A DNA stretch of 64,000 nucleotides from a virus (IMGVR_UViG_3300008952_000006:1-64000), one strand, 5' to 3'; shown: positions 50,804 to 58,388, counted from the stretch's first letter. Translations and numbers: made by a program. The notes: generated by a model from the letters alone, not told the origin.

Positions 50804-50831
50804 GCAAAATCACCACATACTTAGGTATAAT
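50804..50831 (+). promoter_or_regulatory. recurrent phage promoter motif heading the Ubl operon
   Basis: GCAAAA-N14-GGTATAAT. Confidence 0.7.
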
Positions 50832-51273: not shown

Positions 51274-51645
51274 ATGAAAGAATTTGAAATGGTGCCAGGG
51301 CAAGAAGAGTATTGGGCTCTTGTTTCCCAGTCACTAAAGAACCGTAAAAAAGTTAAAACAACCAGCTATGGTGGCTGGACTATTACTAGTTATGTTGGTT
51401 CTCGACCAACAACTGAGACTGGCACAAATATTACTCATATAGAGTATAGCGCTAGTGCCAAAACGGGTGACTTCGAAAGATCGCAGGAGCCCAATCTGTC
51501 CGATGACCCACGAACGATTCGTGTAGACTTTGATGATACATCTGTTGTTACGCTTTCCGCAAAGACAATGGAAGAACTAACAAACAGACTGAAAGAGATT
51601 TTCAATGGTTTTCATTGGGAACAGGAGAAAGAAAGACATGTCTAA
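51274..51645 (+). CDS. hypothetical protein, first gene of the Ubl operon
   Basis: 123 aa; stop overlaps the Ubl start. Confidence 0.6.
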   Translation: MKEFEMVPGQEEYWALVSQSLKNRKKVKTTSYGGWTITSYVGSRPTTETGTNITHIEYSASAKTGDFERSQEPNLSDDPRTIRVDFDDTSVVTLSAKTMEELTNRLKEIFNGFHWEQEKERHV

Positions 51646-52204
51646 CTACTTTGAAGAACAATTAAACGAGGCTACCACCGCACGTGATAACTTTGTCGCA
51701 GCTATGGGCGCAGACTACAGCCGAAGCAACCTGGACCGGCTCCAGGCACTACAGTCACAGGTTGACGCCGCACAGGCGCAACTGCAATCTACAACCCCGT
51801 CCAATGGGTCTAACGGATCCAATGGGTCTAACGGGTCTAACGGTATCGCCGTTAACGTTCAGCCTGCAGATAGCAGCGACGAGAACGTCGAGATGTGTGT
51901 CGTAAGCTTCATCAGGCACGGCAAAACAGACCGCTGCCGTGAGGTGCGTGCAGACGCAACAATCGGTGATATTATCCACACCCTTAATCTTGAGGAGCGA
52001 GGGTCGTGGGATGTAAGCAAACTAACGTTCAAACGGCGCGTTGGCCCAGGGCAAACGGCTGATATCACTGATCCAGCAAACACCAAGTTGGGTCCTGGTA
52101 CACACGAAATCTGGGTTGGGGACAAAGTCTCTGGTGGGCGTCGGCCAAAGCATAGCTGGGGGTTTATCCTTGAGCACGTGCTTGTCAATCACTACGTTCA
52201 GTAG
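51638..52204 (+). CDS. ubiquitin-like protein (coiled coil, SNG linker, beta-grasp, GG, C-terminal extension)
   Basis: EVRADATIGDII beta-grasp pattern; KVSGG at 52124-52138 followed by 21 aa; adjacent to E2/JAB/E1. Confidence 0.75.
   Translation: MSNYFEEQLNEATTARDNFVAAMGADYSRSNLDRLQALQSQVDAAQAQLQSTTPSNGSNGSNGSNGSNGIAVNVQPADSSDENVEMCVVSFIRHGKTDRCREVRADATIGDIIHTLNLEERGSWDVSKLTFKRRVGPGQTADITDPANTKLGPGTHEIWVGDKVSGGRRPKHSWGFILEHVLVNHYVQ
51800..51844 (+). repeat. 5 x 9-bp tandem repeat encoding (SNG)5
   Basis: tccaatggg tctaacgga tccaatggg tctaacggg tctaacggt. Confidence 0.9.
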
Positions 52205-52225
52205 ACCAGACTTAAGACACGACCA

Positions 52226-52265
52226 TGGCGGGGGGCTCCTTACAGGGCCTCCCGCTATTTTTTTT
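52226..52265 (+). terminator. intrinsic terminator between Ubl and E2
   Basis: TGGCGGGGGGCTC/GGGCCTCCCGCTA plus T8. Confidence 0.8.
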
Positions 52266-52275
52266 GGAGGAAGAA

Positions 52276-53406
52276 ATGGCTGCAACCACTAACTGCTTTG
52301 TTCTAGATATTACAAAAAGCGAAGACCACATTGTTGAACAACTGCGCAGTGCGGTTGAGGCTGACTCAAAGAACGACACTGCGAGGATCCTAGAGCTTAA
52401 TGCTCGCATAAAGAAACTGGAGCCAATCTCTAAAATGAATGGCGTCAAAGTCGAAAAGCGGAGTGAAATATATGAGCGCATGCGTGCCCGTATGTCCGCA
52501 AAACATATAGAATACGAAAGAGCCCGAAACCGGGTTCGAACAGCTAGGGACAAGCACTGGGCAAGAATCACTAAGCAAGCTGAATGCGATGCCAGCATAG
52601 ACAGCCTGAAAACGGAAATATCCCGCATAAAACGAAGACTCGAGCATGCGGCAACTCTGTATGAAGGAGACGCCTTCGAAAGGCGAGCGTTGATGTTGAA
52701 ATTCGTTGCAGACCGCGTGGACACTAGCGTGCCAATTACGGTGCAAACCGTCAATGAAAACGAGCTAACAGTCAAATGGAAGACCAGCGACATCTATATA
52801 AAAGATGGTTTCGGTGGAACTCTCCCATTTAACTTTGGAAGCTTCCAGGTTCACATAACGTACAAAACCAGTTCCGAGCGGGGTAATCGTGTAGATGTAT
52901 ACTGTTACGACGCAGCTGATAACGATAAGAGGGCGGACTACTCACACCCGCACCTAAATGAACATGGGCATGCATGTCTCGGAAATCTAGCACCAATGCT
53001 TCTTAAGTTCCTAGGAGAGAAGGATATCGTCGGTGTTATAGAAAAGGTTACGGAGTTCCTTCAACACTACAATAGAGATAACCCGTATATAAAATTAGAG
53101 AACTGGTGCGAGAATAGGTGGGATAACGCCATTTGTGAGTCTGGTCGGCACATCCTAGCGGATTGCACCTGCCCAAGATGTGCTGGTTGTCGCCAAATTT
53201 TTGAAACCCCAGATATTGAAATAAGCGCCTGCGGGCACTGTCCTAGTTGCTGCATGGTCAGCCATATACACGTACCCACAATGACGGGTGTAAACGGTAC
53301 ACACTGCATCAATAGAGCAGAATACCGGCACGTTGAGTGCAACGAAACAAGCCCAGCGGGCTGTACGTATAAGCCAATTGGCGAGCCAACAAATGAAGGA
53401 GCATAG
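52276..53406 (+). CDS. prokaryotic E2 (UBC-like) protein with N-terminal coiled coil and C-terminal Cys/His-rich domain
   Basis: HPHLNEHGHACLGN catalytic motif, then FL.HYN..NPY; 13 Cys in the last ~100 aa. Confidence 0.8.
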   Translation: MAATTNCFVLDITKSEDHIVEQLRSAVEADSKNDTARILELNARIKKLEPISKMNGVKVEKRSEIYERMRARMSAKHIEYERARNRVRTARDKHWARITKQAECDASIDSLKTEISRIKRRLEHAATLYEGDAFERRALMLKFVADRVDTSVPITVQTVNENELTVKWKTSDIYIKDGFGGTLPFNFGSFQVHITYKTSSERGNRVDVYCYDAADNDKRADYSHPHLNEHGHACLGNLAPMLLKFLGEKDIVGVIEKVTEFLQHYNRDNPYIKLENWCENRWDNAICESGRHILADCTCPRCAGCRQIFETPDIEISACGHCPSCCMVSHIHVPTMTGVNGTHCINRAEYRHVECNETSPAGCTYKPIGEPTNEGA

Positions 53407-53407
53407 A

Positions 53408-54442
53408 ATGTCGAAAGTTCTAGAAAACCCAACAGTTCGTTTTACATACAAAGCGTATCAACAGATGCGCGACTTAACAAGAGACTGCCCCACTGAAGTC
53501 AGCGCGATGGGAATCATCGCAACGGACCAGCAACGAGAAGACTTGGGTATAGATGAAAGATTCTATATCCTAAGCTTTGTGGTCCCAGACCAAAGTTGTA
53601 CAGGAGTCTCGACCGTAATGAATACAGACTCTCTGAGTGAGATAGCCTTTGACCTTAGAGACAAGGGCATCCTGTCGGAGCAAGTCTGTGTCTGGTGGCA
53701 CAGCCACGTAAATATGGGAACAGGACACAGCGGCACAGACGAAAAACAGATTGAAGACTTCGACTTTGATGAGGTGTGTATATCACTCATCACCAATAAA
53801 GACGGTGATTTAAACTGTAGGGTCGATCTGTATAAGCCGATCAGATACTCCTTTGAGGAATGCGACTGGTGTGTTGATCCTGTAGATGTCTTAGAGAAGG
53901 ACTGGGCGAAAAAGCAGATCGAAGAGCATGTCTCGGTCCCAGCGCCTACCCGCTTAAATGTTGTTAAGGCACCAGTGGTAAAGAAAACCTACACCCCCTA
54001 CCAGTATGGCGGCTGGAACATGGGCGGTAACTATAGCTGGAACGGTGACTGGGAAGAGGAAGCCGAGGCTGAGAAGGATAAGTCGAAGGCGTCTTCCTAT
54101 GATGAGTACTGCAACTACGATAAAGACGTACCTGAAGTAAACTTCCCCGAGGAGCTTAAGCTGCTGGAGGAGCTACATGAAGAACACGTGGTAACCACAC
54201 AGGAGGCCATGGAGTACTACGCAAAATGGTACGCCAACGAGATAGGTACAGAGGAGCTGGAGGATGAGCTGCAAACTCTTTTCTATGAGAAAGAAATGGG
54301 CGGCGGCCAATCAGAGAAGGACGCAGATGAAGATGACGAGGACGCAGCTGGAAGAAAAATTCTAGAGTCCTTTGTCGTGCATGACATCAACGATGAAGTG
54401 GAAACGCCAAAAGTCTGTTCTGTTGTAGGAGGTTCAGAATGA
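53408..54442 (+). CDS. JAB/MPN+ metallo-isopeptidase with acidic tail
   Basis: TEVS...WWHSHVNMGTGHSGTD (E...HxH-x7-S-x2-D). Confidence 0.88.
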   Translation: MSKVLENPTVRFTYKAYQQMRDLTRDCPTEVSAMGIIATDQQREDLGIDERFYILSFVVPDQSCTGVSTVMNTDSLSEIAFDLRDKGILSEQVCVWWHSHVNMGTGHSGTDEKQIEDFDFDEVCISLITNKDGDLNCRVDLYKPIRYSFEECDWCVDPVDVLEKDWAKKQIEEHVSVPAPTRLNVVKAPVVKKTYTPYQYGGWNMGGNYSWNGDWEEEAEAEKDKSKASSYDEYCNYDKDVPEVNFPEELKLLEELHEEHVVTTQEAMEYYAKWYANEIGTEELEDELQTLFYEKEMGGGQSEKDADEDDEDAAGRKILESFVVHDINDEVETPKVCSVVGGSE

Positions 54443-55101
54443 TAGATACAACCCGACAGTCGGGGATTATCCCAGACAATAAGGTTCAAGAAATATCTGT
54501 CGCCATTGTCGGTGCGGGGTCCATTGGATCCCATACCGCCGAGGTGCTTTGTAAGATGGGTATTCGTAAATTACGCATCTTCGACTTCGACGACGTCGAA
54601 GGACACAACGTGGCCAACCAAGGCTATTACGTACCCGAAATTGGGTATAAGAAGTGTGAGGCTCTACGACTCCGACTTGGTTCGGGAACAGGGGTAGAAA
54701 TCATAGCCGAGAACCGGAGGTATGACGCCGGGGAAAAATTTCAAGAAGAATACGTTATCTCGGCAGTAGATAACATGTCTTCTCGAGCGGACATCTGGTC
54801 CGGTTTCCTAGCAAGCTCTGGTTGTCGCTACTTTCTAGACGCTCGTATGGGGGCAAGAAATGGTTCTGTGTTCTTCGTTGATAAGCGAAGCGTAGAATCA
54901 ATCTCCCGCTACGACCGGTCCTTGTTTCCTGACGAAGAAGCAGTTCAGTTACCGTGTACAGAGAAGAGCACCATCTTCTGTGCATATGGCCTCTCAGGTC
55001 TTATTGGTGCGCTCGTTGCCGAAAGTATTATCGGTGATAATGAGTTAAATTTCTCTGTGGATGTAGATTTCTCCAACATCCACATGTTTCGTAATACGTA
55101 A
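54439..55101 (+). CDS. ThiF/E1-like adenylating enzyme
   Basis: IVGAGSIGS, DFDDVEGHNVANQ, K, AVDN, DARMG, LPCT (candidate catalytic Cys). Confidence 0.92.
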   Translation: MIDTTRQSGIIPDNKVQEISVAIVGAGSIGSHTAEVLCKMGIRKLRIFDFDDVEGHNVANQGYYVPEIGYKKCEALRLRLGSGTGVEIIAENRRYDAGEKFQEEYVISAVDNMSSRADIWSGFLASSGCRYFLDARMGARNGSVFFVDKRSVESISRYDRSLFPDEEAVQLPCTEKSTIFCAYGLSGLIGALVAESIIGDNELNFSVDVDFSNIHMFRNT

Positions 55102-55137
55102 ATCCTAGCTAGCTTATACACTTATAGGGAGAATCTT

Positions 55138-55896
55138 ATGGCTACCAATAACCGCGATAAAAATCGTTTCAGCTTCGGGCAAATGGGAGATCAAATGGTC
55201 TCACTGATTGACGAAGAGACGGCACCTGCCGTCATCCGTATTGAATATAATAACGTCATCTGTGAGATGGCGAAAGTCACAAGTGGTGGTCGCACGTACT
55301 ATACGGGCGTCCCAAAGACAAAGGATGGGCACAAGTGTAAATTTGGTTTTACGCTTGATTGTTCTGGGTACTTCGAAGGAAGTGCCGCAATGAACTACAT
55401 CGCAATGGGCGGGTGGCGTCGGGGGACTAAAAAGCCCACCCACGCAGAGAAGGCTAAGCGACGAACAGAGTTCGTGATGCAATTCCTCTCAAACTGCATC
55501 CACCACCGCAGCCCAGACGTCTCCTCTGAGCACGGCTTAGAGGGTCTTAAGAAGCTTGTGTCAAGCAGAACAGGGATGGAAGTGGTCACGGGGGAAATGA
55601 CCCCCGAAGACCTACGAGGATTGGCTTTGATGGCCGTCCCCTTCTATCTCGTAGAAATCTGTAAAGGGCGGGGGTTGAAGATGGTGCTGGACATACCCAA
55701 GTATGTCTCCCGTCTAGTTCAACCGCAGTACGCCAAATGTGAGCTTGGTGAGTGGGACCACGAGAGTGGTCAGGTAGCCATTACCAGTGCGCTCTCCGCA
55801 GCGCAGGCGCAGCTTATGCAGGAAGCAGGGTACCGGTTCCGAAAGGTTCAATACTCTGTTAAAGCGGCAGCTGAGCCTAAAAAGCAAGAAGAGTAG
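55138..55896 (+). CDS. hypothetical protein at the end of the Ubl operon
   Basis: 252 aa; GGAG RBS; followed by a terminator. Confidence 0.65.
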   Translation: MATNNRDKNRFSFGQMGDQMVSLIDEETAPAVIRIEYNNVICEMAKVTSGGRTYYTGVPKTKDGHKCKFGFTLDCSGYFEGSAAMNYIAMGGWRRGTKKPTHAEKAKRRTEFVMQFLSNCIHHRSPDVSSEHGLEGLKKLVSSRTGMEVVTGEMTPEDLRGLALMAVPFYLVEICKGRGLKMVLDIPKYVSRLVQPQYAKCELGEWDHESGQVAITSALSAAQAQLMQEAGYRFRKVQYSVKAAAEPKKQEE

Positions 55897-55946
55897 ATAT
55901 GGGTGGGGCGCGGCGTTATGCCGTGCCCCTATCCCATCTAATTTTT
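55893..55946 (+). terminator. intrinsic terminator
   Basis: GGGGCGCGGC/GCCGTGCCCC hairpin plus T tract. Confidence 0.75.
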
Positions 55947-55961
55947 ATTTATGAAGAGGGG

Positions 55962-56076
55962 TGACAACAAAGAGGTTGTCAAATGACAACATTGTTATTG
56001 TCGGGCAAAACGCTGTACCAACGGCTACTTACATAGAATATGTGGTATAAGGCAACTGACAACAACGTATCTGTCA
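55962..56076. repeat. three TGACAAC-N6-GTTGTCA palindromes
   Basis: 55962-55981, 55984-56003, 56057-56076. Confidence 0.85.
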
Positions 56077-56108
56077 GGCATAGACACTTTTCACCCAAAG
56101 GAGGGCCT

Positions 56109-57194
56109 GTGAAAGTCATTGAAATTTTAAACATTAGAGCCACTCCGCACGTAAAAGTGCGCGCTTACCCAACAACGAGTACTAACCGGTGGTCCAGAAA
56201 CGACTTTACTGATCCAGAAGATGATGAAGTCTGGGATGAAGATGACCTTACCCCTGTTGAAAGAGGTCACGTGTATCTATGGAAAGAAGACGATGATGGT
56301 TGGATACATATCTTTATGCCGTTTAAAATAATGGATGAAGAAACAGGTATACTGCTCAGAGGCTTCCAGACATTCCGCAGTACAGCTCCTTTTGTAACTG
56401 GCAGAAATCATGCCTTGGATAAGCTAACTAAAAATCCAAAATCTTGTCTCCAGAACTTTAAATTTACTAAAGAGTATTTTAATACATTTAAAAAGAAAGT
56501 TAAGGCTATAGACGGGGTAGTAGAGAAAGATGAAATTGACGTAGAAGCTCTTCTTTCCCATATCCAGGAAACAAGAGAGACTGTAAAAGCGCTTAATAGC
56601 ACAGTAGCCTCTTTAAGAACCACCTACTGTGTAGCTTCCAGTGAAGTAAAACTAGACACAAGAGAAAAACTAGAAGAGGCATTAAAACAATTCTCTATGC
56701 TAAGAGACTCTTTCAGAGAATCCGGTAAAGAGAGAGTTGTGTTAGCAAAAATTCTAAGTCGTTTAAAAGAAGAGTCTGGAAGGAAAACAGCTTACATTGA
56801 AGCGAGCGAGTGGTTTAGTGTGTTAACAAAAGAACTAAACCTCGTGCGCAGTGCAGACTTCGACAGACTAGAAAGAGAGGCGGTTCATAAACACAGGGTA
56901 GACATTGGGGACCTAGATATGACAGCTAGACCACCCACACTAATGGCTCTTGGAGTTGAATTAGATAGGTTAAAACAGTACTTCCCGTGTCTTATAAAAC
57001 TTAAAGTAGTCAACACTCAAAACACCGAAGCAGTCTACCTGGACTTACCAGGGATAAAAATATCCCTCTTAAGCGATGGTGCTGTAAAAGTAGAAGGTGA
57101 CCCAGCAGTACTTAAACCATTCGTAGAAGGCTCATCCGCAGTTCAGGCTGCGGGGAGGCGTAGACGTACGATCTACACAGAAGATGAAAACTAG
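56109..57194 (+). CDS. hypothetical coiled-coil protein flanked by palindrome clusters
   Basis: GTG start with AAGGAGG RBS; visibly AT-richer than its neighbours. Confidence 0.65.
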   Translation: MKVIEILNIRATPHVKVRAYPTTSTNRWSRNDFTDPEDDEVWDEDDLTPVERGHVYLWKEDDDGWIHIFMPFKIMDEETGILLRGFQTFRSTAPFVTGRNHALDKLTKNPKSCLQNFKFTKEYFNTFKKKVKAIDGVVEKDEIDVEALLSHIQETRETVKALNSTVASLRTTYCVASSEVKLDTREKLEEALKQFSMLRDSFRESGKERVVLAKILSRLKEESGRKTAYIEASEWFSVLTKELNLVRSADFDRLEREAVHKHRVDIGDLDMTARPPTLMALGVELDRLKQYFPCLIKLKVVNTQNTEAVYLDLPGIKISLLSDGAVKVEGDPAVLKPFVEGSSAVQAAGRRRRTIYTEDEN

Positions 57195-57201
57195 GGAGGG
57201 G

Positions 57202-57315
57202 TGACAGAATGAAAGTTGTCACTCACCGTTATTCGGTAGAATCCCGTAAACAAAGGTAATACCTAGGTTTTTGGTGACAACAATGAAGTTGTCATCGACA
57301 AGGTGAAAGTTGTCA
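57202..57315. repeat. three TGACAAC-N6-GTTGTCA palindromes
   Basis: 57202-57221, 57275-57294, 57296-57315. Confidence 0.85.
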
Positions 57316-57470
57316 CCCTCTAGGTACTTGTGGCTTGCATATGGATGAAGTTATTACCAATAATGTTAAATAGAATTTCTATTTTACCAACACGCTCAGC
57401 TACTACGACAGACGAATTGTTAGTAGCTTTATCTGGCAGCAACACAGTGAAACATGCCAAAGGAGAAACT

Positions 57471-58388
57471 ATGGCGCAAGACCAACTAAAACTTAAGAAG
57501 TTTAAGTTTGAAGACATCGAACTCAACGTTGATGGCTTCCAGAATTGTAGAAAGGCAGACATATATGATGTCAAAGAATTAAAGGAGTCCATCAAGCGAG
57601 AAGGGCTTCTAAATCCGCCAATCGTGCGGGTTTATAAAGATGATGACGGAGAGCAAAGAATTGTTCTTTTAGCGGGGTATCGAAGATACCAAGCTATTTC
57701 AGAGGAACGAAACACTCGAAAAGAGGCTGGGGAGAGCACTGCTAAGTTTTACGACATGATTCAGTGCACTGTCTTCTCAGGGTCTTTGGACGAAGCTCTT
57801 GCATTAAACTTGAGTGAGAATATGCAAAGGCAGAAGCTCAATCATGCGGACCAATGCGAAGCCATTGCGAAGCTTGTGGAGCGTGTTGGTAACCAAGAAC
57901 AGGTTTCCGGTATGCTTAGCATCAGCCAGCCTCAAGTAAGTGTTATGACTTCCACCTACCTTGGTCTATGCAAGATGGGTTTAGAGGCGCTCCGACACGG
58001 AAATATCCGCCTGAACCTAGCCAAGAGATTGGCGAGGTACTTAAAAGAAGATGGCTCTCCTGATGTTAAAAAGCAGGAAGAAATCCTCGAAGAGATATTA
58101 ACCGCAAAAGACGGCTCCCTGCCTGAAGATGCTCAACGTAAACGGGCTAAGACATATAGGAGCAAGCGCGAAGTGGAAGAACTGCGTGCCTTGTTAGCGA
58201 ACGCAGAGGGCGATGAAGTTGACGCAGACTACCGTAAAGTATCCATGCAGTGGTGCAAATGGTATTTCTGCGAGCTAAACACCGACACGATGCTTTACCG
58301 AGTGGAGGAGGACACTGTAGAGCTTATCGAAGAAGAAGCGCCAAAGCCCAAGAAAAAGAAGCGTAAGAAAATTCGCGTGGGTGAATAA
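57471..58388 (+). CDS. parB: ParB/Spo0J-like protein
   Basis: ELKESIKREGLLNPPIVR, LLAGYRRYQA, LSENMQR..L, HTH NQEQVSGMLSISQPQVS. Confidence 0.85.
   Translation: MAQDQLKLKKFKFEDIELNVDGFQNCRKADIYDVKELKESIKREGLLNPPIVRVYKDDDGEQRIVLLAGYRRYQAISEERNTRKEAGESTAKFYDMIQCTVFSGSLDEALALNLSENMQRQKLNHADQCEAIAKLVERVGNQEQVSGMLSISQPQVSVMTSTYLGLCKMGLEALRHGNIRLNLAKRLARYLKEDGSPDVKKQEEILEEILTAKDGSLPEDAQRKRAKTYRSKREVEELRALLANAEGDEVDADYRKVSMQWCKWYFCELNTDTMLYRVEEDTVELIEEEAPKPKKKKRKKIRVGE

Follow-up and report, generated by a model that had tools for sequence, protein, structure and literature searches.

Can a phage encode, and itself run, a complete ubiquitin-like conjugation pathway? The question is raised by a 64,000-nucleotide stretch of viral DNA (IMGVR_UViG_3300008952_000006:1-64000, hereafter the window), in which six close-set plus-strand genes fill positions 51,274 to 55,896. 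Four of these, adjacent and co-oriented within 51638-55101, specify in order a ubiquitin-like protein (Ubl), an E2-like conjugating enzyme, a JAB-type peptidase and an E1-like activating enzyme, and a conserved gene without family assignment lies on either side (51274-51645 and 55138-55896). A first-pass annotation, made from the sequence alone, had described this locus as a complete phage-encoded cascade with intact motifs and two such flanking genes, and on both counts the description holds. The four components of the cascade are as follows.

51638-52204, plus strand: pro-Ubl, with a beta-grasp fold and a ...KVSGG end followed by a tail
52276-53406 (open reading frame 52225-53406), plus strand: E2-like conjugating enzyme, with an HPH-x7-C-L-G motif and matches to E2 profiles
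53408-54442 (open reading frame 53333-54442), plus strand: JAMM/JAB metallopeptidase, with a JAMM motif and matches to RPN11 and Prok-JAB
54439-55101, plus strand: minimal E1 of 220 residues, a single ThiF/MoeB-type adenylation domain matched by Pfam ThiF

For this locus we computed domains, motifs, conservation, synteny, phage context and the docking geometry of E1 with Ubl. The evidence from folds, profiles, motif conservation, synteny and complex modelling supports a phage-encoded Ubl conjugation cascade, and neither a sulfur-carrier pathway nor a cellular contig. We consider it probable that a large marine phage of lytic type here encodes and operates a genuine conjugation pathway, which most likely acts within the module that serves the phage's own DNA replication, recombination and partition.

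The window is the first part of a single 173,034-bp contig, recorded as an IMG/VR virus with direct terminal repeats and a CheckV completeness of 100%; the initial ~100 bases of the contig are found again at 172,915. Phage genes encoded on the contig include those for a DNA polymerase, a helicase, a ribonucleotide reductase, an exonuclease and a head-maturation protease. Profile searches of the phage genome gave no match to Pfam Terminase_6C and none to Pfam Gp23, but the Gp23 control also matched nowhere, which makes that search uninformative; the phage identity is therefore based on the virus record, the terminal repeats, and the replication and head-protease genes. The contig is thus viral and not cellular, as the first-pass annotation had assumed.

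The tag is a predicted beta-grasp protein with an invariant Gly-Gly end

The pro-Ubl comprises a helical hairpin (residues 2-52), a disordered linker of SNG repeats (53-81) and a beta-grasp domain (86-167) that ends ...DKVSGG, the last two residues being Gly166-Gly167 (GGT GGG, nt 52133-52138), after which a 21-residue tail follows. By sequence, the protein matches no Pfam or NCBIfam family, and its profile finds no relative among solved structures. An AlphaFold2 model based on 16 homologues reaches a pLDDT of ~90 across the beta-grasp, whose elements run b-b-a-b-b-b. Foldseek searches with this model return UBX, SUMO, ubiquitin, Hub1, TBCE-UBL and MoaD from the PDB (TM by target 0.6-0.73), and the matches in BFVD are giant-virus ubiquitins. 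The beta-grasp fold, on which the initial assignment of this gene depended, is accordingly predicted by AlphaFold2 and backed by Foldseek, and it is joined to a flexible tail with a C-terminal Gly-Gly, the combination that defines beta-grasp modifiers. The KVSGG end plus extension is likewise as first described: V-[AS]-G-G is invariant in 16/16 homologues and is followed by 1-3 unconserved residues, the longer extension of 21 being found in this phage alone. Judged from these alignments, a Gly-Gly with a variable extension reads as the typical signature of a modifier that is synthesized in precursor form.

A minimal E1 is modelled with the Ubl tail in its nucleotide pocket

The E1 matches Pfam PF00899 (ThiF) over residues 14-192 of 220 (E 1.8e-17; 63.8 bits, cut-off 28.1), and its relatives in the PDB are Uba5, MccB, Cap2 and ThiF. 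It carries GAGSIG, DFDDVEGHNVANQ, Asp111, Arg136, Cys173 and Cys181; of these, GAGSIG, Asp111, Arg136 and the block LPC(173)TEKxTIFC(181)AYG are invariant among its relatives. The protein therefore has the Rossmann-type adenylation domain, the GxGxxG loop and the catalytic Asp and Arg that characterize the ThiF/MoeB/E1 superfamily, and the GxGxxG, DxD..N..Q and C-terminal Cys noted at first pass are each accounted for. It has no CYS domain, ubiquitin-fold domain (UFD) or CxxC zinc motifs, and there is no space in it for either of these domains.

Modelling was carried out on three chains, two copies of E1 and Ubl residues 82-167, alongside three controls. The E1:Ubl interface has an ipSAE of 0.75, compared with 0.01 for the best control of the three; the 0.75 mark is attained by 58 of 80 solved complexes and by 2 of 110 mismatched pairs. 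Contact agreement between runs is at least 89%, and partner pLDDT at least 85. In the model, the Ubl tail (161-167) touches E1 residues 25-30 (the glycine loop), 109-113, 136-143 and 160-177 (the loop with Cys173), and Gly167 contacts residues 29, 109, 111 and 136. The modelled Gly-Gly tail thus sits inside the E1 nucleotide pocket, which is the geometry needed for adenylation. Structure prediction, which the first-pass annotation had proposed for an E1:E2:Ubl complex, favors the E1:Ubl pairing, with the limit that this pass may reflect likeness rather than proof because ThiF/MoeB-type complexes have already been solved.

E2 and JAB retain the catalytic motifs of their superfamilies

Residues of E2 are numbered here from the open reading frame start at 52225. 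A terminator hairpin between the Ubl and E2 genes (described below) indicates that this is not the true start of the protein, and comparison of relatives places the probable start at 52276, behind the hairpin, its T8 run and a GGAGG ribosome site. The protein consists of a coiled-coil hairpin (33-145), a UBC-like core (148-296) and a Cys/His-rich tail (304-361). Its active-site motif, HPHLNEHGHACLG (HPH-x7-C-L-G), contains H241-P242-H243 and Cys251 (nt 52975-52977), residues retained in 144-147 of 149 aligned family members; the motif is as intact as first reported and has the HPx, then Cys after 7-8 residues, by which the UBC/E2 superfamily is recognized.

E2 itself has no direct match in Pfam or NCBIfam, and tblastn against GenBank phages found nothing. 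A profile of six sequences gathered 588 relatives from 1.84 billion representatives, and Pfam UQ_con is matched by 2 of 84 remote family members (2.9e-5). With a profile of the core (140 sequences), 78 PDB sequences are matched at E <= 1, and 59 of the 60 listed are E2 enzymes; the best is UBE2W (HPHV...G.ICL; E 0.015), some alignments cover the whole core, and the phage HPH...C aligns with the HPN/HPH...C of solved E2s. The AlphaFold2 model (mean pLDDT 63) proceeds from the coiled-coil hairpin through a helix, a beta-sheet, the HPH loop and Cys251 to two helices, an order that fits a UBC core. This topology and the near-exclusive E2 profile matches are in keeping with the UBC-type fold on which the cascade assignment depended. 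At least six Cys are found in the tail of 107 of the 123 family members that have one, and the tail is probably zinc-binding.

Comparison of relatives places the likely JAB start at 53408, one base past the E2 stop. The metallopeptidase occupies the N-terminal ~180 residues and is followed by an acidic C-terminal region ending ...VVGGSE. The motif HSHVNMGTGHSGTD (HSH-x7-S-x2-D) is accompanied by a conserved upstream Glu, and all of its elements (Glu, H-S-H, Ser and Asp) are invariant in 7/7 relatives, so that the site first read as HSH-x7-S-x2-D conforms to the E...H-x-H-x7-S-x2-D zinc site of JAMM/MPN+ metallopeptidases. Pfam Prok-JAB matches at E 0.015 (15.6 bits, under the cut-off of 25), and a profile of five homologues matches almost only RPN11/PSMD14, aligned over the motif (E 0.08).

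The JAB C-terminus itself resembles that of a Ubl (...VVGGSE, ...VVGGSK or ...TFGGTA) in 4 of 8 phages drawn from both clades: at 54425-54442 in the window, at ~10147-10164 in L009, at ~11582-11599 in L016 and at the JAB C-terminus of L029. The remaining JABs end ...PVGVAV, ...EELDD or ...KKGVC. Such a tail could act as a pseudo-substrate that blocks the site of JAB or of E1, or it could offer a second end for conjugation.

The cascade is a fixed block in related large phages

The survey for synteny suggested at first pass found the locus in seven related large-phage contigs of 50-181 kb (L007, L009, L016, L017, L026, L028 and L029), whose sources are marine metagenomes, IMG/VR and a single NCBI assembly. 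All seven keep the same ten genes in the same order (the first flanking gene, Ubl, E2, JAB, E1, two further genes without family assignment, then ParB, an AAA+ ATPase and a RecA-like gene), with every catalytic motif intact. Across these relatives, identity to the window protein is 58-95% for E1, 60-98% for the AAA+ ATPase, 35-75% for JAB, 38-74% for Ubl and 29-53% for E2, which makes E2, on these alignments, the fastest-evolving part, as expected for the part that meets the target. The motifs are not a chance occurrence, because they are invariant in seven independent contigs whose proteins are 29-95% identical, and because the E2 HPH and Cys persist in nearly the whole family.

The same layout recurs on two more distant contigs, P0036 (131 kb) and P0051. 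A remote member, P0112 (ENA ERZ1426827), has a 91-residue gene product, an E2-like protein (602 residues), a 207-residue gene product and ThiF (378 residues), the set lying between genes for a Mre11-like phosphoesterase and a Rad50-like ATPase; in other remote phages the cascade adjoins primase/UDG or ligase/topoisomerase genes. Among 185,579 species-representative cellular genomes there is no close homologue of the E1, the best being 33% identical. One Myxococcota chromosome, a metagenome-assembled genome, carries five ThiF-like copies at about that level of identity (L034, L035, L037, L038 and L039), with no obvious same-strand JAMM or HPH...C neighbor.

A megablast search of the locus against GenBank phages gave no match. 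Homologues of the E1, labelled 'thiamine biosynthesis protein', are found in Xanthomonas and Erwinia jumbo phages, in crAss-like cr85_1 and in Flavobacterium phage FpV4. In the cultured Xanthomonas jumbo phage PhiXhv-12 (L019, 2808-6684), a 140-residue protein ending ...KASGG precedes an 892-residue E2-like protein and ThiF; the annotations of these genes read hypothetical protein or 'thiamine biosynthesis protein', and the 892-residue protein aligns with our E2 core profile across HPH...CLG (hhalign, 87% probability). No JAMM motif was seen near this E2-like/ThiF pair, in agreement with a tag for which trimming is unnecessary. In cr85_1 (L021, 2996-6711) and FpV4 (L020, 2610-6621), four-gene sets within the replication module encode a protein ending in Gly, an HSH...CL protein, a JAMM peptidase (HSHNxMAxFFSGxD) and ThiF. 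These sets may represent the same cascade in diverged form, with E2 and Ubl assignments that lack profile support: for the HSH...CL genes such support is weak or absent, FpV4 gp52 giving no match to the E2 profile, and hhalign comparisons of the small upstream proteins of PhiXhv-12 and cr85_1 with the window Ubl do not support homology (E 0.74 and 0.08).

Control elements and the downstream ParB/AAA+ module

The following elements lie before, within and after the operon.

50824-50831, plus strand: GGTATAAT box preceding the operon's long leader, read in the sequence as a candidate -10-like promoter element
52225-52268, plus strand: intrinsic terminator or attenuator between Ubl and E2, a 14-bp GC-rich stem with T8 (z-score -3.8)
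55900-55950, plus strand: terminator hairpin with a T-rich run at the end of the Ubl operon (-30.8 kcal/mol, z-score -4.1)
55961-56080 and 57201-57320, unstranded: two clusters of GTGACA-N-TGTCA palindromes bracketing a conserved gene of 384 codons
56040-57194: this 384-residue gene product, without family assignment, conserved in relatives and probably starting later
57471-58388, plus strand: ParB-like protein with ParB_N and a GxxRxxA box (Pfam ParB_N, 1.9e-6)
58389-59945, plus strand: classic-clade AAA+ ATPase with a Cdc48/PAN/FtsH-like module (Pfam AAA, 6e-29)

GGTATAA[GT] occurs 13 times on the plus strand and twice on the minus strand, with ~5.5 expected per strand, and is a candidate phage promoter element. 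The first-pass claim that the operon stands under the phage's own promoter motif has weak support: GGTATAAT is present at 50824, and the enrichment of the motif is weak. Copies at 9006, 17043, 23055, 42899, 46302, 50824 and 56044, among others, lie mostly in gaps before plus-strand genes. A second motif, ATAGAAT, was rejected as a promoter element, since it is not enriched (13 found, 11 expected).

Hairpins with U7-8 equivalent to that between Ubl and E2 are present in L007 (7946-7990), L009 (7949-7990), L016 (9476-9515) and L017 (9543-9582), and their stems covary, differing in sequence between phages. This pattern suggests an attenuator, conserved among these phages, through which the tag would be made in larger amounts than the enzymes.

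GTGACA-N-TGTCA occurs only three times in the 173-kb genome, in each case in the gaps around the 384-residue gene and before ParB, and in L007, L009 and L016 palindromes occupy the corresponding gaps between genes; they may serve ParB as centromere or operator sites. ParB and the palindrome array lie 1-2 kb downstream of the cascade, and the ParB-like gene is syntenic in 7/7 relatives. The AAA+ ATPase, always found after ParB, matches phrog_8638 (1.6e-133) and, far under the respective cut-offs, NCBIfam CDC48 (1.8e-27) and PAN (3.4e-27). It is a possible functional partner of the cascade, and the adjacency of a Ubl-type tag to a Cdc48/PAN-like unfoldase is suggestive.

The phage system differs from described Ubl pathways

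The gene order Ubl, E2, JAB, E1 is that of the Type I and Type II BilABCD operons (PMC10557695, 10.1101/2023.09.04.556158), in which the Ubl is conjugated to a phage structural protein and E2s choose phage targets without an E3 (PMC11601596). Both systems have four separate genes in this order and no E3, with E2 as the presumed chooser of targets, and in both a Ubl extension is expected to be removed by JAB; linkers rich in N/G, or a coiled coil at the N-terminus, are also seen in some Bil Ubls (PMC11601603). In contrast to BilD, which has inactive, active and mobile cysteine domains (IAD-AAD-CYS), the phage E1 is a single domain of 218-225 residues in all relatives. The phage E2 further differs from that of Bil in having a classical HPx, a coiled-coil arm and a Cys-rich tail, and the phage operon lies in the core genome beside ParB, AAA+ and RecA-like genes, whereas Bil lies in a bacterial defence island. 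PADLOC defence models match nothing beyond the generic Rossmann part of Cap2 (E1 residues ~12-100).

The PRTRC cassettes of plasmids and integrative and conjugative elements (NCBIfam TIGR03734-TIGR03742), to which the first-pass annotation had drawn attention, likewise combine a ThiF-type E1, Ubl/E2/JAB-type partners, a ParB homologue and proteins without assignment on a mobile replicon. PRTRC_ThiF (57.7 bits, cut-off 144.75) and PRTRC_parB (42.3 bits, cut-off 278.6) are the second-best NCBIfam matches of the phage E1 and ParB, and PRTRC proteins A, C, D, E and F have no NCBIfam match at E <= 0.1. The comparison is apt as an analogy, for the ParB link the closest one, given that ParB and the palindromes are always syntenic, and fails as formal membership: the cut-offs are not reached, and the phage, unlike the PRTRC carriers, forms virions.

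The eukaryote-like Ub/E1/E2/RING/Rpn11 operons of Caldiarchaeum and some bacteria, which we compared through their published descriptions and not their sequences (PMC5654768, PMC3082918), share with the phage a separate small E1, E2 and JAB, a Gly-Gly with a JAB-trimmed extension, an HPx...Cys motif and a zinc-finger element, in the phage a putative one. They differ in that the phage Cys-rich element is fused to E2 and is only a candidate RING, the phage Ubl lacks sequence similarity to ubiquitin, and the context is viral. Bub and Type II CBASS, which belong to mobile conflict loci, also resemble the phage locus: they adenylate with a ThiF-type enzyme, transfer in E2-like fashion and include a JAB peptidase. 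Bub, however, uses Ser/Tyr oxyesters and a DUF6527 protease (BubE), whereas the phage E2 Cys is invariant and Pfam DUF6527 has no match among the nine proteins scanned; and CBASS Cap2 unites E2 and E1 in one protein and has a cyclase as its conjugation substrate, whereas the phage has separate genes, a true Ubl and no CD-NTase in the locus.

The absence of Bil's multidomain E1 build, together with the failed PRTRC, Bub and CBASS tests, sets the phage system apart from these known ones, and we class it as a virus-owned, minimal-E1, E3-less Ubl conjugation operon. A 2006 survey of prokaryotic ubiquitin-like systems listed, for phages, only the lambda-type TAPI/TAPK tail-assembly pair, and our searches of the openly searchable full-text literature found no account of a phage-encoded Ubl/E1/E2/JAB cascade.

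A proposed mechanism and its alternatives

From family knowledge and motif conservation, we infer catalysis by these enzymes, thioester formation on Cys173, transfer to Cys251 and modification of lysine. In the proposed scheme, the operon would be transcribed from its long leader, with the terminator after the Ubl gene yielding an excess of tag over enzymes. JAB would cleave the pro-Ubl after Gly167, taking off the variable tail. The small E1, probably dimeric, would bind the beta-grasp and guide the KVSGG tail under the crossover loop into the ATP pocket, where Gly167 would be adenylated; Cys173 of E1 may then accept the Ubl as a thioester, and the Ubl would be handed to E2 Cys251 beside HPH. 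Without a separate E3, E2, with its coiled-coil arm and Cys-rich tail, would pick the target and move the Ubl to a lysine, a mark that JAB may also undo. As to the target, the phage's own replication and partition machinery, or host proteins at takeover, are favored over defence or counter-defence, a preference based on fixed synteny alone; the replication/partition arena in particular is suggested because the cascade is always beside ParB, the palindromes, the Cdc48/PAN-like AAA+ and the RecA-like gene.

Several points weigh against this reading. The whole case is computational. The E1 has neither a dedicated catalytic-Cys domain nor an E2-recruiting UFD, which leaves the route of the Ubl to E2 unexplained, and Cys173 may be the thioester site on the basis only of its crossover-loop position in the model. 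For E2, searches with the whole model (Foldseek against the PDB, VIA-align and ESM-Atlas shape) return no UBC match, the coiled coil dominating; the family matches of E2 and JAB are individually weak (E 0.015 to 0.08); and the Cys-rich tail has a pLDDT below 50, with only 4-7 Cys in a divergent sister clade. The link between the cascade and the ParB, AAA+ and replication genes is, moreover, one of synteny.

Among the alternatives, a Bil-like defence cassette that excludes competing phages, with the Ubl attached to one of the structural proteins of the superinfecting phage in the way that Bil modifies tail fibres, would explain both the BilABCD gene order and the rapid divergence of E2, the latter being expected of an arms-race component; it also has precedent in the E3-less targeting of phages by Bil E2s and in the coiled-coil-Ubl architectures known from Bil and Bub operons. 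We nevertheless think it unlikely, since the cascade occupies a fixed place in the ten-gene block of all related phages, down to ~30% E2 identity, and lies inside a replication/recombination module and not in an accessory island. The lack of an IAD-AAD-CYS build, the generic PADLOC match and the distance of the nearest cellular E1 speak against it as well. More improbable, in our estimate, is counter-defence, with JAB removing the conjugates made by host Bil or CBASS, or with the Ubl, E1 and E2 swamping the host conjugation machinery or acting as decoys for it. Host Ubl defences regulated by JAB do exist (PMC11601596), and phage inhibitors that mimic host parts are common, but for deconjugation a peptidase alone would suffice, yet all four parts are intact in every relative; the JAB, moreover, shares an operon with its own pro-Ubl substrate, whose Gly-Gly tail it matches, and specific support is lacking, including any for hosts carrying Bil or CBASS.

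Two further explanations place the E1 outside conjugation altogether. As part of a sulfur-carrier or thiolation pathway of the ThiS/MoaD/TtuB kind, it would adenylate the Ubl for thiocarboxylate formation in cofactor synthesis or tRNA/DNA thiolation, a role that would agree with its best NCBIfam match (ThiF of the ThiS pathway, 66 bits, cut-off 159), with the resemblance of the Ubl fold to MoaD and with the thiamine biosynthesis label on related phage genes. This role is very improbable: ThiG, MoaE, rhodanese and TtuA/ATP_bind_3 domains are absent from the whole phage genome in searches whose positive controls matched in 11-14 of 14 genomes, which upholds genome-wide the first-pass statement that no ThiG/MoaE partner is present and extends it to rhodanese and TtuA-type domains. 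Together with the E2 and JAB, since an HPH...Cys E2 and a JAB play no part in sulfur transfer, this absence argues against a sulfur-carrier role, as does the large helical N-terminal domain of the pro-Ubl. Finally, an MccB/PaaA-like enzyme that turns a small protein into a toxin or a signal by adenylating its C-terminus is suggested by E1 matches to MccB and PaaA in the PDB (E 2e-5 to 2e-4). These matches are limited to the Rossmann N-terminus (residues 2-80), the substrate here is a folded beta-grasp with a Gly-Gly end and no short peptide, and E2 and JAB would be left unexplained, so that we give this explanation scarcely any weight.

Viral Ubl conjugation thus remains the reading we prefer, and it would differ from prokaryotic Ubl conjugation as met so far, either directed against phages (Bil, Type II CBASS) or unexplained (Bub, PRTRC), in being virus-owned and fixed in a core genome. 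The parts list is strikingly small, with a 220-residue E1 and an E2 that has its own targeting arms. If active, the pathway would equip phages with a post-translational tool of general use for rewiring proteins of host or virus, would offer a minimal model of Ubl handover to E2 by an E1 with neither cysteine domain nor UFD, and may account for the 'ThiF' genes, long without an assigned role, labelled thiamine biosynthesis in cultured jumbo and crAss-like phages; the cultured relatives make the question directly testable. A broader and rather doubtful extension is that several large-phage lineages, among them the marine clade, the jumbo phages of Xanthomonas and Erwinia and perhaps the crAss-like phages and those of Flavobacterium, run Ubl tagging as a core element in replicating or partitioning their genomes. 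A minimal E1 and an E2 without E3 would fix the Ubl to a protein of the phage or the host, which the constantly adjacent Cdc48/PAN-like AAA+ would then handle at ParB-bound palindromes. Were it true, phages would possess a 'tag and unfold or extract' route comparable to that of ubiquitin and Cdc48 on eukaryotic chromatin.

Conserved genes flanking the cascade

Two further genes complete the operon.

51274-51645, plus strand: first operon gene, encoding a conserved protein of 123 residues without family assignment; its last 8 nt are shared with the start of the Ubl gene
55138-55896, plus strand: last operon gene, encoding a conserved protein of 252 residues without family assignment, present in 7/7 relatives

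The 123-residue protein, which has no match in Pfam, NCBIfam, PHROG or PADLOC, is kept in 5/5 aligned relatives and contains an invariant RVDFD..SVV block. Neither the 252-residue nor the 384-residue protein downstream of the cascade has a detectable family: searches of Pfam, NCBIfam, PHROG, PADLOC and ESM-Atlas gave no family, atlas or fold lead for the former, and ESM-Atlas feature and structure searches yielded nothing usable for the two. The GGTATAA[GT] copy at 56044 falls inside the listed start of the 384-residue open reading frame, suggesting that its true start is later. Each of the two proteins contains an invariant block, GGW.R..KKP in the 252-residue protein and, in the 384-residue protein, a C-terminal G-RRRR-x-I (57150-57194 and the corresponding ends in relatives).

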